IMG/VR virus record: IMGVR_UViG_3300025277_000007
Location: 1 to 39,532 of that record
Reading direction: 5' to 3' (one strand)
From: a virus
Taxonomy: Duplodnaviria > Caudoviricetes
Length of the DNA stretch: 39,532 nt
The number at the start of each line of letters is the position of its first letter. The first letter of the stretch is position 1. A program made the translations under genes and the position numbers. The notes under the pieces were generated by a model, which did no database searches, had not been told where the DNA came from, and saw only the letters and a list, made by a program, of their open reading frames with translations. Of the stretch, positions 12,365 through 39,145 are shown piece after piece.

Positions 12365-15300
12365 TTAGTCATTAATTTTAGGCCCGCGTGAAAGCACGTC
12401 TTCCAATCCTCTTCGCATCTCTGGAGGAAGCAGGGGCAGTAGCGCCCGAACCAGGTCGGTCTGACGCGGGTCTTCCGTTGTATACGGATTGAAACTTCCC
12501 TGCAGCATGGCAACAATAGTGGCCAGTAGTGCCTGGTCCTGATCCTGGCCAGCAAGGGTGCGCTGGCCATCCAGGAACCCCAGTTCCCCCGCCCGTGCCA
12601 GTTCCCTGCGCTCCAGCAGGCCGGCGATATCGGTGCCGGCTCCAATGGCTTGAGTGAAGCGTTCATCAGCCCTCTCAGCGCCCTGTCCCAACGCCGCCAG
12701 TACCGCACGGCTCTGGTCGTCGGCTCGGAGATTGGCCAGATCGATAGTCTGACCACCACGCAAGACGCCAAACCTCTGCAGCAGCTCCCGATCCTCCCGT
12801 TCGCGCAGGCGATCTTGCTCTTCCTGATCTGCGAGAATCGAGGCAGTAATCGGATCAGATCGCAGAATACCAGCAGCTTGTGCCTGTGCCCTTCTGGTGG
12901 CTTCTGCGTCGATATCGCCTTCAAATCCGTCGGCTACAAGTTCAGCCCGAATCTGCGGGATAAGTTCTGCAGTCATCTCCTGGATCTGTGAGCGAATATC
13001 GGTGAACCCAGGCCGAATGGCACCAAGCAACTCCTCAAATACGCCACCCGAGCCAGAAGGCTGTAGGCCATCGGCGGTGTCCAGTCGAGCCAGAATGTCG
13101 GCCAGCGAGTCCTCAAGGCCGGATATATCTGTGACTCCACCAGCACCCCCGCCTCCACCACGTTGGTTAATGAGATCATTAACCTTCTGTATCTCCCGAG
13201 GAAGATCTTCTGTCAGACCCTTGATCTGCCCCCCCATGCCCGGCAGGAGGGTAAGAGGGCCTAAGAGAGTTTCGATACGATCCAGACCTGGCAAGTTGAT
13301 ATCGACACCGGCATTTGCCAACAGATCTGGCAATCGACCAAAATCACCAGCCTGAATGCCAGCCAGTAGATCGTTCAGCGGACCCGCATCTGTAGCGTAG
13401 CCGGCAAGATCCCCAAGCGGATCAAGACCACCAAGATCCAGGCGGTCAAGGAGGGCGTTGAGCGGCCCAAGGCCCAGGCTCTCAAATTCACCACGCAGCG
13501 CATCCATATCCGGCAATAACTGGCCAGCTGTCAATGGACTGGGAGCACGATGCCTAAACTGTTCAAGTAGTTCGCCGCGGCTTGGTAGCAGATCGTCTAT
13601 CGTCAGCTGCTCCGGCCTCATCGCCGTCCACGCTTCATCCATATCGATCGGCAGCAAGTCCCCTGACAGTAACTGCTGGGGCCGCATAAGATTCCACTCG
13701 TCCATCAAGTCTGTAGGCAGCATCCCCCTTGCTGTCAACGGATCAGGCCGCATCGCCGTCCACGCGTCACCCAGAATCCCCTCATCCGGCAGCAGATCGC
13801 CTGCTGTCAACGGATCAGGCCGCATCGCCGTCCACGCGTCACCCAGAATCCCCTCATCCGGCAGTAACTCGCCGGCTGTTAATCGACTGGGGGCACGATA
13901 CGCGAGCTGTTCACGTAGCAGATCACGACTCGGTAGCAGATCGTCTATCGCCAGTGGACCGGGCTTACGCTCATCCCACGCTGTAGTCAGTTCCTCCTCG
14001 CCAGGCAGCAGGTCGTCCAACGTCAGCGGAGGCAACTCTCCCATCGCTGTGTCAAGCTCTGCAAGTTTGGTGCCGCCGAGGGTAAACAGCTCGTTGAGCA
14101 GTCGGGCCTGATCTAATGGACCGCCCGTAAGGCTCAGATCAGGCGGTGCAGGCAATCCACCCAGCAGCGTCTCCAGGTCTTCGCCCTGACCGAGCGCCTT
14201 TGCCAAGCCAGTCCGTTGTGCCGGGAAGCCATATCCCTCACCGCCAAAGGAGCCGCCGATAATATCATCCAACAAGCCCTGCGACCTCTGCAGGTTCCTG
14301 AATAACGCGTTGGGCACAGGAGATGCGCCCAGCACCCCAAGGTCGTCAGTGATACCGCCCAGTTGATCTTCTAAAGTGCCTACTGTGTCAACAAATCCAG
14401 TAGGGAATTTCATAATCGAGGGGGACAGTTGCTGTCGCAACTCACCAAGACGAGTGCCCTGTAAGGTGATGGCCGCGGCAAGCTCCCCAAGGCCGAGGCC
14501 GCGGAGTTTCTCCTCCAAGCCGCCTTCGCCAAAAATGTCCCGCTCGATGACATCAAGGCCAAAGTCAGCGCCGGTCAGAGGATCAATAGCGCCACGAATA
14601 CCCGTGCCGATGTCACTGGCAAGGCCAGGGATATTCAGACCTGTGAGAATATCTCCACCCAGGCCACCGAGTTCGCCGAGAATCTTTGTGCTAATATCCC
14701 CTGGCAAGTCTTGAAAGAGGTCAAGAAGACCAGCTCTCAGATTCTCTTCAGGACTCAGTCCTGGTCTCGTCGTTGGAAAACCTAAGCTGAATGCAGGGCT
14801 ACCGAATATCACTTCAATGTGGCGCTGAACATTGTCTTCCCGTTCCTGCAGTGCCATAAAGAACCTGGCCCGGAACTGACTCATCTGTGCGTCGGAAGGA
14901 CGAGGCACATTCCTATCAGGGTAGTCGGCACGGTCGATGGAGCCGTCGCCGTTGACATCCTCGCCCTGACTGGCCAACCACGCGTCCAACTTCTGCCCTT
15001 GAACGATCATCTGCACTACAGGATCAGCGCCCAAGCTCTGGAAGACTTCGCCGGGACCAGAACCATATCGGGCACCATATTCTGCGGTGCGGAAATGCTG
15101 GTTAGTAAATTCTGTCAGATCTGGATCTGTGAAGTCGGGATTGTAGTTCGGCGTCCCCCACCCCGTCACTGGGCTTTTCCACTCCCCAGGATCAGTCCAT
15201 TCAAATTCAGTGCCATCAGCAGCAGCATCACGCGCAAATTGACTGCCTGCCCCGGTAGGATCATATCCTCCCATGTCAATTTCTTCGGGCGGCAAAGCGC

Positions 15301-31639: not shown

Positions 31640-32356
31640 TCAAGCTGCCTTTCGCCGATTGAATCGACCACCATGTAGCGGAATAACAATACTTTTCGCT
31701 CCTATACTCGACCCACTACAAAGGCGACAGTCGGCACATTGGACCTTATGGCGACCAATATGTGGGCATACGATTTCATTAGCCGATATAGGGCTATCGA
31801 TATGCTCTATCGTACGATACGCTCGCCATCCCTTTTCGTTGGCGAGTTTAACGTCGGCCGGCGTCTCGCAGCTGGCCATAAGGTATTGCGAGTATTCTAC
31901 TGGCAAGGTTCGCCATTGATGCGAGTATCCTGTGAATTTACGCGACGGGGCGCCAGGTTGTCCCGCAGTCCAGGATTTCAAGACGGACAAAGGGAGGAAC
32001 CCGGGATCACCATAAGCACCTAACCGAATCGGTTTACCCGGCCGGATATCGGCCGGATCGATATCGGGTATGCGTTGACCTTTCACGGATCGATAGACTT
32101 GTGTCGGCATTTGTCCCACAAGTACATAGCAATCGTTGTTTCCGCCATTTTCCGTAGATGAGTACAGACAGCCGCCACAGTTATGACGGTCAAGACCTTT
32201 CCGCAAAGCTTCCAAGGGCTCCACCTTGCGAACCAATATGCTCAGCTGCAGCATGTCCCCCGTCTTAGGATTCGCTGACCGGCGCGTAACGCCAGTAACA
32301 GCCGCCACTATCGTACTCGTACGATAGATAGGTATGGAATTCTTCATTTTCCACAC
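31640..32356 (-). CDS. Gp88-like Cys-rich (radical-SAM-like / Fe-S) protein
   Basis: 'SANPKTG', 'CGGC...CYV', 'IRLGAYGDP', 'TGYSHQW', 'MASCE', 'CP...CADCRLC...I....HG'. Confidence 0.65.
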   Translation of the reverse strand: MWKMKNSIPIYRTSTIVAAVTGVTRRSANPKTGDMLQLSILVRKVEPLEALRKGLDRHNCGGCLYSSTENGGNNDCYVLVGQMPTQVYRSVKGQRIPDIDPADIRPGKPIRLGAYGDPGFLPLSVLKSWTAGQPGAPSRKFTGYSHQWRTLPVEYSQYLMASCETPADVKLANEKGWRAYRTIEHIDSPISANEIVCPHIGRHKVQCADCRLCSGSSIGAKSIVIPLHGGRFNRRKAA

Positions 32357-33151: not shown

Positions 33152-33380
33152 TATTTGTCCGGCCGGACAAATAAACCGGCCGGCCCTTTCCGGCCCATCT
33201 TTCCAGCTGGCAGACGACCACCCGACCCACCCGACCAGGCCGGCCGGCCCGACCTAAGTCCCTGTAGGTATTGAGTTTGGATTGCGATTGAGATTGAATT
33301 GGAATTGGAATTGGATTAGGATCGAGATTGGATTGGAATTGGATTGAGATTGGATTGCGATTGGAATTGGATTCAGATTC
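33152..33380. repeat. Palindrome, CCGACC repeats and strand-biased ATTG(G/A/C) tandem array
   Basis: TATTTGTCCGGCCGGACAAATA at 33152-33173; CCGACC at 33222, 33231, 33249; gattgga/aattgga run at ~33270-33380. Confidence 0.85.
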
Positions 33381-33383
33381 TTC

Positions 33384-33413
33384 TTGACATCGCAATATGA
33401 TGGGGACTATATT
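33384..33413 (+). promoter_or_regulatory. Rightward sigma70-type early promoter
   Basis: TTGACA, 18 nt, TATATT upstream of AAGGGGG-ATG (33452). Confidence 0.65.
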
Positions 33414-34384: not shown

Positions 34385-34662
34385 GCATTCAGGAGCAGTA
34401 CGAGGCGGCGGGGACATTTCGGGACCGGCTCCGCGCCGGCCTGTCCACAGGAGATTCGGGTGGATCGGCTCCATCGTCAGCCGACCATGCCCTGCTGAAG
34501 GCCGCAGAAGACGCTCTGACGCGTCCCAACATCTCGCCTGACTTCCGAGCCAGACTCATCCGCGAGGCGGCTCAGATCGAGTCCTGTCGCTATTGCGGGG
34601 CAATCTACTGGCCTGCACCCATTGGATTCGGGCGCAGATGTGACTGCCCGGAGAACAAGTGA
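34381..34662 (+). CDS. Hypothetical protein with C-terminal zinc finger
   Basis: CRYC...CDC; coupled to both neighbours. Confidence 0.6.
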   Translation: MSIQEQYEAAGTFRDRLRAGLSTGDSGGSAPSSADHALLKAAEDALTRPNISPDFRARLIREAAQIESCRYCGAIYWPAPIGFGRRCDCPENK

Positions 34663-36020
34663 GGTTCGGCTCGTTGTTCGCTGGCATCGGCGGCTTTGAC
34701 CTCGGGCTGGAGAGGGCCGGTATGGAGTGCGCGTGGCAGGTGGAGATCGATCCATGGGCACGGCGCGTACTGGCCAGGCACTGGCCCTCTGTGCCTCGCT
34801 ACGAGGATGTAAAGGAAGTTGGCCATCATAACCTGGAGCCTGTCGATGTCATCTGTGGCGGGTTCCCCTGTCAGGATATATCCCATGCTGGAAAAAGAGC
34901 AGGTATCGGAGGTGAACGCTCGGGTCTTTGGGGAGAATATGCGCGAATCATTCGCGAGCTACGACCTCGATACGTCATCGTGGAGAACGTCGGCGCTCTC
35001 CTTGTTCGGGGGATCGATGTCGTACTCCGAGACTTGGCCGAGAGCGGGTATGATGCGGAATGGGACATCATATCGGCTGCAGCCGTTGGTGCCCCGCACC
35101 TCCGTGAAAGGGTCTGGATTGTGGCCTACCCCGACCACGGACAGCGCGCAGGACAGGCAGAAGAAATACGCACAGGGCGGGACGCCTCTCACTATGGCCG
35201 TGAAGATGTGGCCTACCCCCAGAGCAGCAGACTTCAAGGGAGCGATCAACCCGTCAGAGACAACGGCCCGCAGAGTGGAAACTGGCAAAGCGAACCTGCC
35301 GGAGGCAGTGGTGGAGTCGCAGAGATGGCCGACACCGCAGGCGTCCGACAACAGGGACAGGGGGAATCGACAGACACCAGCAATCAAGCGACGGATCGAG
35401 AAGGGGAAACAAGTGATGCTCTCGATGTCCGTATCGGACACCAGTGGACAGTTGAACCCGATGTTTGTCTGCTGGCTGATGGGCTATCCGAAAAACTGGA
35501 CGGAGGTCGTCGAGTAAATGTTGACAAGAGATGGCTACAGGTTCCATGCCCGCAAGGCGCGGGAGAAATCCTGCGCCGATTGCGGGAGTACCGAGAGGCT
35601 CTGCGCCCACCACATCAGCGGGGATTGGACGGACAACACACCCTCGAACTTGCAGACGCTATGCAATTCCTGTCATACGTCATTGCATCACAGACAGGGA
35701 GACATCCTGAAGAAGTCAGAACCGCCGCCGTGCAAGATCTGCGGCAAGCCGTCGTATCGATCAGTGGAGGGCTTGTGCAGCACACACCGGACCAGACTCA
35801 AGAGACATGGGAGTCCCTTGCTGAAGAAGAGAAGGACTGGTGCATCGTGGCATCTCGCATGGGACCGTGGTGGACTGAGTGGACAGAGGTTCCAAGAGTT
35901 GCAAGCGGAATACCCAAGCGGGTGGACAGACTTAGAGGACTCGGCAACGCCGTAGTGCCCCAGGTGGTCGAGTGGATCGGCCACCGCATCATGGAGGTAG
36001 AAGCCTATGAGCCAGTGTGA
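34659..36020 (+). CDS. dcm: DNA cytosine-5 methyltransferase, alpha (catalytic) polypeptide
   Basis: Motif I FAGIGG, IV GGFPCQ, VI ENV, VIII H.RERVW, X RLRGLGNAV; motif IX absent from this frame. Confidence 0.92.
   Translation: MRFGSLFAGIGGFDLGLERAGMECAWQVEIDPWARRVLARHWPSVPRYEDVKEVGHHNLEPVDVICGGFPCQDISHAGKRAGIGGERSGLWGEYARIIRELRPRYVIVENVGALLVRGIDVVLRDLAESGYDAEWDIISAAAVGAPHLRERVWIVAYPDHGQRAGQAEEIRTGRDASHYGREDVAYPQSSRLQGSDQPVRDNGPQSGNWQSEPAGGSGGVAEMADTAGVRQQGQGESTDTSNQATDREGETSDALDVRIGHQWTVEPDVCLLADGLSEKLDGGRRVNVDKRWLQVPCPQGAGEILRRLREYREALRPPHQRGLDGQHTLELADAMQFLSYVIASQTGRHPEEVRTAAVQDLRQAVVSISGGLVQHTPDQTQETWESLAEEEKDWCIVASRMGPWWTEWTEVPRVASGIPKRVDRLRGLGNAVVPQVVEWIGHRIMEVEAYEPV
34846..35517 (+). 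CDS. C5-MTase beta polypeptide in the +1 overlapping frame (3 WPTP TRD-like repeats + motif IX)
   Basis: GGAG 7 nt before ATG 34846; WPTP at 35122, 35209, 35326; 'GQLNPMFVCWLMGYPKNWT'. Confidence 0.75.
   Translation: MSSVAGSPVRIYPMLEKEQVSEVNARVFGENMRESFASYDLDTSSWRTSALSLFGGSMSYSETWPRAGMMRNGTSYRLQPLVPRTSVKGSGLWPTPTTDSAQDRQKKYAQGGTPLTMAVKMWPTPRAADFKGAINPSETTARRVETGKANLPEAVVESQRWPTPQASDNRDRGNRQTPAIKRRIEKGKQVMLSMSVSDTSGQLNPMFVCWLMGYPKNWTEVVE
35518..35955 (+). CDS. HNH endonuclease nested in the +1 frame of the MTase gene
   Basis: 'CADCG...HHISGD..DN...NLQTLCNSCH..LH' plus second Zn motif 'CKIC...GLCSTH..RLKRHG.P'; GGAGGT RBS at 35502-35507. Confidence 0.8.
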   Translation: MLTRDGYRFHARKAREKSCADCGSTERLCAHHISGDWTDNTPSNLQTLCNSCHTSLHHRQGDILKKSEPPPCKICGKPSYRSVEGLCSTHRTRLKRHGSPLLKKRRTGASWHLAWDRGGLSGQRFQELQAEYPSGWTDLEDSATP

Positions 36021-36396: not shown

Positions 36397-36609
36397 ATGC
36401 CCCGGTGGAAAACAGAACTGACCCTCCACGATGCCCCTGTCACAGTCCACTACGTCCACGGTGGCCTCATGGTGATGTGTGGGAGTGAGGATGTGACCGA
36501 CAATATCAGCAAACAAGACCTGTCTACTCTGCATACCATTGGCGGCGAGGTGGAGCAGGAGAATATGATCGAAGACAACGGAGTCATGGTGCCAGAGGAT
36601 ACCCCGTGA
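36397..36609 (+). CDS. Hypothetical protein (MPRWKTELT...)
   Basis: GAGGA RBS; fills the operon gap. Confidence 0.55.
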   Translation: MPRWKTELTLHDAPVTVHYVHGGLMVMCGSEDVTDNISKQDLSTLHTIGGEVEQENMIEDNGVMVPEDTP

Positions 36610-37412
36610 CGGAACACGATATCATCGACCAGGCCATTAAGCAGTACAGCATCACCAAAGTGTTTGGCCTGTTCTCTGGAGGGCATGACTCTCTCTGTGC
36701 CACCCATGTCGCCTCCAGCCATCCCGCCTTCGTTTCTGCGGTGCATATCAATACCGGGATCGGGGTGCCACAAACGCGCCAGTTCGTACGAGATACGTGC
36801 AAAGAGCATGGGTGGGAACTGTTTGAATATCACCCGCCCGTTCCTTATCGGGAGATCGTCAAGGAACACGGCTTCCCCGGCCCTGGAGGTCATCTATACA
36901 TGTACACGCGCCTCAAAGAGAGGTGCATTCGCCAGCTCACCAGAGAACACAAGACGCACCGCCTGGAGCATATCGGGCTGGTGTCAGGGGTGCGCTCGGA
37001 AGAATCCACGCGACGAATGAGACATGTGGACGCAATCCAGAAAGAAATCTCACGGATCTGGATTGCCCCGATCCATGCATGGGACAAGCGGCAGTGCAAC
37101 GACTACATCGACAAGCACAACCTCAAGCGCAACGAGGTCGTCGATCTTATCCATATGTCGGGGGAATGTTTATGCGGCGCTTTTGCATCGCCTGGAGAGC
37201 GCGAAGAGCTGCGCTTGTGGTTTCCTGATGTAGTGAAGGAAATAGAAGAGATCGAGGCAGAGGTGGCCAAAACCGAGAAGCCTTGTGTCTGGGGTCAAAA
37301 ACCGACCAGGATCGCCGGACAGCAGGAGATGGCGTTTATGCCCATGTGCGTGGGCTGCGGCAAGAGAGATGAAGACAACCACAACGAAACCACTGGAGAA
37401 TTGAACCCATGA
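36606..37412 (+). CDS. PAPS-reductase-family (PP-loop) protein
   Basis: 'FSGGHDS', 'NTG', 'LKER', 'GVRSEES..R', 'API..W', 'SGECLCGAF'. Confidence 0.85.
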   Translation: MTEHDIIDQAIKQYSITKVFGLFSGGHDSLCATHVASSHPAFVSAVHINTGIGVPQTRQFVRDTCKEHGWELFEYHPPVPYREIVKEHGFPGPGGHLYMYTRLKERCIRQLTREHKTHRLEHIGLVSGVRSEESTRRMRHVDAIQKEISRIWIAPIHAWDKRQCNDYIDKHNLKRNEVVDLIHMSGECLCGAFASPGEREELRLWFPDVVKEIEEIEAEVAKTEKPCVWGQKPTRIAGQQEMAFMPMCVGCGKRDEDNHNETTGELNP

Positions 37413-38401: not shown

Positions 38402-39145
38402 GTGAAGATCTTTCTGGGCCATACATCAAGCCACAAGATCCTGGCTCGACTGGAAACGCTGGGGTGGGGGAGGTTCTGGTGCTATCACAACCAGTTCAAC
38501 CCCTTCCCCGGCGAACAGTGGGGCCTCGACAACGGTGCCTACGCCGCCTGGCAGAACGATACGCCATGGGACGCAGCAGCCTTTATCGACAAGGCGCAAC
38601 GGGCTGCCGAAATGGACGGCTGTGTGCTGGCGGTGCTGCCTGACATGGTTGGCCAAGGGGAGAGATCGCTGGACTTCTCGCTGGAATGGCTGGCCAAGCT
38701 CCCCAAATTGCCCTGGTATCTGGCCGTGCAGGACGGCATGGAACTACAGCCCCTCTGGGGTAGGTTGCTGGACAACCTGGATGGCATCGACGGGTTGTTC
38801 CTGGGTGGCACGAAACGGTTCAAGTTGACCGCGATGAACTGGCGCATGACAGCTGACATGATGGGCAAGCGACTTCACTACGCAAGATGTTCAACGCCTG
38901 CAGTGTTGCAACACGCCATGAATTGCAATGTGGATTCAGTGGATTCCAGTTTCCCGCTATGGACAAAGGAACGTCTGGCCATCTTTGAGAAGGTGATCTC
39001 AGGCGAGGCACCGCAGATGCAGTTGGCAGAAGAGTGGGGCTATCGTAACGATCCGTCGTTGTTGTTCAACAGCAAGCAGACGTTGGCCGAGGAAAGGGCG
39101 TCCGGCAAAAGAAATCCCTTGCGAAAGGACAGTCGTTCAGTGTAG
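38402..39145 (+). CDS. TGT/DpdA-like TIM-barrel protein (putative DNA base modification)
   Basis: 'LDNGAY..W', 'PD.VG', 'AVQDG', 'LFLGGT..FK', 'HYAR', 'DSVDSS' resemble guanine-transglycosylase-like phage proteins. Confidence 0.6.
   Translation: MKIFLGHTSSHKILARLETLGWGRFWCYHNQFNPFPGEQWGLDNGAYAAWQNDTPWDAAAFIDKAQRAAEMDGCVLAVLPDMVGQGERSLDFSLEWLAKLPKLPWYLAVQDGMELQPLWGRLLDNLDGIDGLFLGGTKRFKLTAMNWRMTADMMGKRLHYARCSTPAVLQHAMNCNVDSVDSSFPLWTKERLAIFEKVISGEAPQMQLAEEWGYRNDPSLLFNSKQTLAEERASGKRNPLRKDSRSV

Follow-up and report, generated by a model that had tools for sequence, protein, structure and literature searches.

A candidate homing HNH nuclease overprinted on a two-frame cytosine methyltransferase gene of a phage

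Homing endonuclease genes can be inserted into host genes without splicing, as exemplified by mobE within nrdA of Aeromonas phage Aeh1 and by fungal mitochondrial endonuclease genes that bring along a substitute for part of the host gene. The phage locus described here resembles these cases in that the insertion is tolerated without splicing and the element re-supplies host sequence; it differs in that those elements divide the host gene or take the place of its end, whereas here the host frame reads through the nuclease gene. The closest described systems are the out-of-frame HNH inserts in mycobacteriophage methylases (the ShiLan domain), reported from sequence analysis by Arsenault, Gosselin and Gogarten in 2025 (PMC11855218), and the Pacc40 gp60 insertion (Gosselin et al. 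2023, PMC9957025). A 2025 genome announcement annotates an out-of-frame HNH methylase gene of the ShiLan kind (PMC12613952), and out-of-frame nucleases are described in inteins too (bioRxiv 2025.01.02.630785). By their published descriptions (PMC11855218, PMC9957025), the ShiLan and Pacc40 gp60 cases share with the present locus an out-of-frame HNH with zinc-finger motifs in a phage methylase, a stop-free host frame, no signs of an intron or intein, a patchy distribution, a short host duplication at the insert end and a poorly folded host-frame product, all likewise deduced from sequence. A first-pass annotation of this DNA had put the locus forward as an undescribed system; the principle had in fact been published in 2025 (PMC11855218).

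Several features nevertheless set this locus apart. ShiLan gp65 is described as a DPPY amino-methyltransferase with an intein and an HNH in the +2 frame, whereas the host here is a C5 methylase and the HNH lies in the +1 frame. Leaderless GTG initiation is proposed for the ShiLan HNH, whereas the start of the present HNH is coupled to a beta stop with a Shine–Dalgarno site, and the hosts of its family, unlike those of ShiLan, span two-frame and single-chain methylases. The possibility that the two are the same element was ruled out, the ShiLan HNH scoring 6.5 bits against the HNH family profile of the window (by which we mean the whole 39,532-nucleotide stretch analyzed), and no mycobacteriophage appeared among the phage matches to that family. 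Of the features characterizing the ShiLan type, the window shows a discrete insertion absent from close alleles, an open host frame, an out-of-frame zinc-motif HNH, no intron or intein and a disjunct distribution; the N-terminal finger is absent, as are the marks of the ShiLan domain proper, namely a homologous HNH, the +2 frame and an amino-methyltransferase host. The main text of the 2025 paper (PMC11855218) contains none of the words cytosine, C-5, EcoHK31I, subunit and coupling, and an open-access literature search turned up no publication that treats the C5 two-frame case.

The host gene is best compared with M.EcoHK31I, described as having an alpha subunit with motifs I–VIII plus X and a beta subunit with motif IX in another frame of the same DNA (PMC2836561, PMC3404938). 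The window represents a complete virus record (39.5 kb, with terminal repeats), and its sequence occurs in marine metagenome runs. Its alpha ORF (34659–36020, plus strand), assigned from the ORF list, Pfam and PHROG, encodes a C5 cytosine methyltransferase of 453 aa in which motifs I–VIII (aa 1–158) are followed by a long low-complexity variable region, the read-through of the insert (about aa 277–419) and motif X, whose GNAVVP closes the protein. Pfam DNA_methylase matches residues 1–158 (E 2e-48), and Foldseek aligns the alpha model with M.HhaI (E 5e-16, 162 columns); AlphaFold pLDDT is mostly >90 in the core and 92–95 in the motif X helix, and 30–72 in the insert. The beta ORF (34819–35517, plus strand, +1 frame) ends at a TAA stop at 35515–35517, and its start is uncertain (TTG 34819, ATG 34846 or a later codon). 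It encodes WPTP repeats and then, in an alignment of 28 betas, a motif IX-like end (GQLNP..WLMGYP..WT). PHROG 1008 (DNA methyltransferase) matches the beta ORF (E 2e-36), and the beta tail aligns by hhalign with the part of single-chain hosts that holds motif IX (96%, E 3e-9, against 0.5% for a reversed control); a profile search with beta matched no solved structure. This two-frame layout, with I–VIII and X in alpha and IX in beta, is the norm of the phage family, being found at 70 of the 76 loci with motif X, a subset of 80 loci picked by an insert-free methylase. Alpha and beta are thus predicted to constitute an M.EcoHK31I-like two-frame C5 methyltransferase with methylase activity. Compared with M.EcoHK31I as published, the window has no visible cognate restriction enzyme, its beta is longer, with the WPTP repeats, and the HNH gene follows beta within alpha.

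A candidate sigma-70-like promoter (33384–33413, plus strand; an assignment based on an 11/12 consensus match) precedes the plus-strand gene run that holds the methylase and is a candidate source of a shared transcript. Together with GC-rich CCGG/CCCGA repeats and, directly 5′ of it, a strand-biased tandem array of GATTG type (33270–33379), it makes up a region between divergent gene runs (33170–33413) that may be origin-like or regulatory. Near the methylase are a PAPS-reductase-family gene (36606–37412), a DUF7227/PHROG 2554 gene (31640–32356) and a PHROG 15826 gene (38402–39145), possibly further DNA-modification genes. A large minus-strand structural block occupies 5264–29833; its recognized products are the major head protein and the terminase small subunit, and about 14 of its long ORFs gave no Pfam or PHROG match. 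A 72-base tandem duplication is present at 13730–13879, and a Pfam search of 17 other ORFs of the window returned no match.

The HNH nuclease ORF (35518–35955, plus strand, +1 frame) comprises 145 codons and a stop, 146 codons in all. Its ATG at 35518 directly follows the beta TAA, and a Shine–Dalgarno-like GGAGGT (35503–35508, plus strand) lies within the beta tail, 9 bases 5′ of this ATG; the ORFs agree here with the first-pass reading. That reading had also seen an intact zinc-binding HNH domain with a second zinc motif, and both are present, as CxxC..HH..N..N..CxxCH..H and CxxC..C..H. The assignment draws on matches to Pfam HNH (E 0.002, below the curated cut-off) and to PHROG HNH families (down to E 1e-7), and the top Atlas match of the protein is an HNH cluster (0.93). 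A profile search against solved structures was weak (best E 0.004), and a structure search with the HNH model returned nothing at E ≤ 0.001, its weak rows being HNH-fold proteins. Two refinements can be added: the window HNH is a short form without the ~55-residue N-terminal zinc-finger region of its 166–205-aa relatives, a form common to 10 of 22 protein homologues, and its last ~14 codons and stop are the host's original beta tail. With alpha and beta, the HNH would bring to three the proteins predicted from one gene.

Alignment to the insert-free locus L198 delimits an inserted element of 426 bp (3n) at 35488–35915 (plus strand), with ends uncertain by ~5 bases. The best crossover falls at 35487–35489 with an offset of 426, and 59 of 65 insert-free segments place the left end at 35483–35493. 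In beta, this landing point is where motif IX ends. The first 30 bases of the element rebuild the end of beta, including a new stop and the GGAGGT site, and its 3′ part rebuilds the alpha segment ahead of motif X. A copy of the motif IX segment, which is doubly coded, stands on either side of the insert, and the two are related (alike at 27 of 60 bases): the upstream copy (35441–35510, plus strand) keeps the beta reading, and in the downstream copy (35867–35955, plus strand) the beta reading has decayed and the alpha reading runs into RVDRL..GNAVVP. The beta-frame score is higher for the upstream than for the downstream copy in 31 of 31 loci. A clean alpha/beta division of labor between the copies was rejected, as it holds for beta at all 31 loci but not for alpha, for which the downstream copy is better in 9 of 31. 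An assembly artefact was ruled out by independent contigs that cross the beta–HNH junction in runs not marked as possible sources (X9, 34869–35944, 0 differences; X5, 35182–35872, 0 differences; X13, 35182–35944, 3 differences).

The alpha frame contains no stop across the whole HNH ORF, remaining open for 146 codons up to motif X as the first-pass annotation had stated. Synonymous resampling with the HNH protein held fixed gave 5.0 expected alpha-frame stops (P(0) = 0.003), and codon shuffling gave 5.2 (P(0) = 0.002). Chance overlap was ruled out by these two tests of the window and by its relatives, a set of 89 distinct HNH matches of at least 60 bits (obtained from three collection scans with an HNH alignment plus two cultured phages) that includes the copy in the window itself and a partial copy at 99%. 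Alpha-frame stops within the inserts of homologues had been named beforehand as the observation that would speak against overprinting; instead, the host frame, one base upstream, is stop-free in 71 of the 89 relatives against 0.65 expected. Being related, these loci cannot be counted as that many independent trials, but they are diverged, their HNH sequences being about 30–87% identical to that of the window. The third frame is open in 0 of these 71. Among the open loci is the AT-rich phage CUB-EPI_14, for which 16.7 stops were expected. The other 18 relatives, most of them free-standing, have 5–25 stops each, near the null (12.4 seen, 14.0 expected).

Comparison of the window with 11 relatives gave dN/dS values of about 0.13–0.27 for the HNH frame (9 computable pairs) and about 0.55–1.1 for the host frame, with substitutions concentrated at HNH third codon positions. 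The HNH frame is under purifying selection (dN/dS about 0.15–0.25 for close relatives), the short form included, and the alpha reading of the insert is nearly neutral apart from stop avoidance. Because host-frame changes are slightly more conservative than expected (z about 2.6 in a rough test), the spacer appears mildly constrained rather than wholly free. All of the covered open-frame loci (70 of 70) retain intact catalytic and zinc residues, a count that is partly circular because the search patterns included active-site residues.

The 71 open loci comprise 34 with alpha read-through, 12 with beta read-through, 13 in single-chain methylases and 12 unclassed, so that 59 can be assigned to a C5-methylase layout. 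Insert length is 3n in all 33 alpha-read-through inserts measured and 3n+1 in all 11 measured of the beta-read-through class, one of which (L092) is doubtful. The 3n+1 inserts put beta, insert and motif X in one frame, resulting in an M.AquI-like split at 12 loci; the likeness belongs to these relatives and not to the window, and the M.AquI subunits are described as separate genes without a nuclease insert (PMC3404938). In the alpha class, the HNH ATG lies at most one codon from the beta stop at 29 of 34 loci, two loci are beta–HNH fusions, and a Shine–Dalgarno-like site is present in 21 of the 32 non-fused relatives. In the single-chain class (n = 13), the insert sits just ahead of motif IX. 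The host frame is continuous from well upstream through motif X at 31 of 34 alpha, 11 of 12 beta and 8 of 13 single-chain loci, the last figure being a pattern count of 9 of 13 minus L113, a false pass; in some relatives (L028, L133 and L129), the host gene is broken outside the insert.

Other arrangements were observed across the relatives. The same HNH family is fused in frame within a single-chain methylase at L159 and to beta at L077 and L093, and these fusions are possible intermediates. At L071, one frame holds the motifs I–III region, beta, insert and motif X and another holds motifs IV–VIII, so that the two-frame methylase is rewired in yet another way. Distant HNH-like ORFs occupy the same site behind beta at L264 (2752–3165), L284 (1365–1691) and L329 (1344–1697); they score 29–42 bits against the HNH family profile, carry a different C-terminal zinc finger and leave the host frame stop-free, the one at L329 being fused to beta. 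Single-chain methylases with an in-frame stop within motif IX, just 3′ of the HNH insert, were seen at L113, L109 and L119 (also L111 and L120). These stops stand between matching codons (CTT-TGA-CTA, GTT-TAG-GTT and CTT-TGA-CTT), with motifs IX–X resuming in the same frame, and at L120 extra residues occupy the stop position; they could represent stop hopping, read-through or a split gene. Cultured carriers of the element are Staphylococcus phage CUB-EPI_14, in gp45 (ON325435; L135, 1342–3147), and Komagataeibacter phage phiKX1 (L136). The expectation that gene callers would miss the HNH is borne out for CUB-EPI_14, which is annotated only as a DNA-cytosine methyltransferase; it fails for the window, whose HNH protein is in a public protein collection. 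Among the 80 methylase-selected loci the insert is rare, with 0 of 80 carrying the HNH family and 1 of 80 a more distant HNH-like insert.

The first-pass statement that intron and intein hallmarks are missing also held. An Rfam search of the insert gave no match at E ≤ 1, the insert has no non-coding base and no intein end motif (HN-[CST] type), and Pfam found no intein family. A group I or II intron was rejected on the absence of a structured non-coding ribozyme core (Rfam) and of non-coding room, and an intein on the absence from the host frame of a Hint domain with a C/S start and an HN-[CST] end. The insert might still be removed or skipped by an intron of unknown type, by protein splicing or through ribosome bypass, or else a separate motif X peptide might arise from an internal start; in either case, full-length alpha would not be the working form. 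Such a scheme would draw on the two related copies that flank the insert and on the motif IX stops of L113, L109 and L119, from which recoding may occur in the gene family. The Rfam, non-coding-room, end-motif and Pfam results all count against it, as does the open frame itself: removal at the RNA level would need no stop-free frame along the whole insert. We consider this explanation scarcely probable.

The element has a patchy distribution among its hosts. On a host tree of 138 rows the HNH label needs 15 changes, 8 of them forced by strong branches, and it is clustered, since shuffled labels need 36.9. HNH and host identities correlate weakly (rho 0.29), and from the clustering and this correlation it follows that much of the inheritance is vertical. 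The short-form HNH clade (7 rows, SH-aLRT 98) is found in hosts that are 36–69% identical, as in a pair with an HNH identity of 81% versus a core identity of 42%. Host monophyly of the six short-form members with cores was rejected (AU p 4e-13) on a tree of 45 of the 138 rows, from which four had been dropped beforehand (three long branches and L264), the group having been named after the host tree was seen. Module exchange is also evident: the window's catalytic core is 99% identical to that of the insert-free P0035, P0147 combines the same variable region and insert with another core, and in L058 a 92% identical core is joined to a different variable region. Cores and variable regions therefore swap independently, and part of the patchy pattern may reflect module exchange.

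This swapping bears on a reading in which the HNH is a passenger or accessory nuclease (with a role, for example, in recombination or in general interference against co-infecting phages) that has ceased to home and moves with the methylase 3′ half, swapped at motifs VIII and X. The exchanges seen in P0035, P0147 and L058 are direct observations in its favor, and it accommodates the clustering of the HNH label and the lack of the N-terminal zinc-finger region in the window. It is harder to reconcile with the purifying selection on the HNH frame, which extends to the short form, and with an identical landing site in very different hosts, single-chain methylases included; moreover, an accessory gene would not profit from remaining within another gene. 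We judge the passenger reading unlikely.

Potential targets are found in the same samples. Of four runs examined, three also contain a close insert-free allele, and two show variants without the whole methylase gene. Joints recorded in the runs are 35211>35911, 35461>35910 and 34657>36007; in several runs, 34657 is joined to 36007 via four other bases, pointing to related phages without the whole methylase gene. Since insert-free alleles and methylase-free variants co-occur with the element, it has targets at hand, and the host gene can be dispensed with. A 12-base junction core (at most one mismatch) is present in 53 of 65 insert-free segments versus 0 of 44 insert-bearing loci, in either copy; these statistics derive from the 80 methylase-selected loci, with 120 loci chosen by a target pattern left out, and the test is biased in that its controls lie near P0035 and many insert-bearing hosts are distant. 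The more distant HNH-like inserts at L284 and L329 keep the consensus target upstream. The absence of the core from insert-bearing loci would fit the prediction of self-immunity.

The first-pass annotation had offered two options, overprinting without splicing and an inseparable restriction-modification or competition module. In the second, the HNH would cut unmethylated sites protected by the host methylase, from which it could not be separated. The nuclease and methylase would lie on one transcript and are apparently translationally coupled, and a C5-methylase layout can be assigned for the 59 loci noted above, as this option would have it. A single HNH clade is, however, carried by methylases that are 36–69% identical and have different beta regions, a pairing at odds with matched specificity; variants without the insert and variants without the methylase occur together; 18 of the 89 relatives lie outside any open host frame; and methylase-bearing loci mostly have no HNH insert. 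A Type II system is defined by a matched nuclease and methylase that are co-inherited, and what was found instead is an HNH clade on unrelated methylases together with insert-free alleles. This second option thus appears very unlikely, the insert-free allele with a 99% identical core, the relatives outside an open frame and the nature of the nuclease, a small zinc-finger HNH, all telling against it. Overprinting without splicing agrees with the open-frame statistics, dN/dS, host trees and insert alignment, with homing as its likely means of spread.

The window thus carries an overprinted HNH insert in a two-frame methylase whose host frame is kept stop-free, and we consider it probable that this insert spreads by homing without splicing. 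From these results we infer read-through to a 453-aa alpha, coupled HNH translation, retained methylase activity and cleavage of insert-free alleles. Alpha would be translated straight through the insert, which would place ~140 loosely folded residues as a spacer between motif VIII and motif X. Beta would be made, and ribosomes would restart at TAA-ATG to produce the HNH; alpha and beta could still assemble as a methylase, as in M.EcoHK31I. In a mixed infection, the HNH may nick or cut alleles that lack the insert, at or close to the doubly coded junction of motifs IX and X, and repair of the cut allele would copy the insert in. The junction suits such an element because both frames constrain the DNA, giving a conserved target, because the alpha variable region is a tolerant linker and because the gene is dispensable.

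What is new here is the combination of a separate HNH family, a C5 host, the +1 frame, a start that is coupled to the stop of beta, a target read in both frames and inserts of 3n or 3n+1 that set which subunit carries motif X. A broader proposal, which we advance tentatively but which has an appreciable chance of being right, is that the doubly coded motif IX–X junction of phage C5 methylases serves more than one lineage of splicing-free homing nucleases as a common insertion site. These nucleases would borrow the beta stop for their own start and erase the target in both flanking copies, and their length would either leave an EcoHK31I-like split (3n) or rewire it to an AquI-like one (3n+1), so that selfish nucleases may be what drives the subunit layout in a widespread family of enzymes.

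As far as our literature search found, this is the first quantitative test of selection for an open host frame. The analysis yields a predicted target and translation start, and the cultured phages CUB-EPI_14 and phiKX1 allow the 2025 hypothesis to be tested. Many long 'dcm' annotations would conceal a nuclease and a beta subunit. Overprinting without splicing is thus not a mycobacteriophage oddity: it appears to have arisen once more, with a different HNH family, methylase class and frame, and it is common in uncultured phages.
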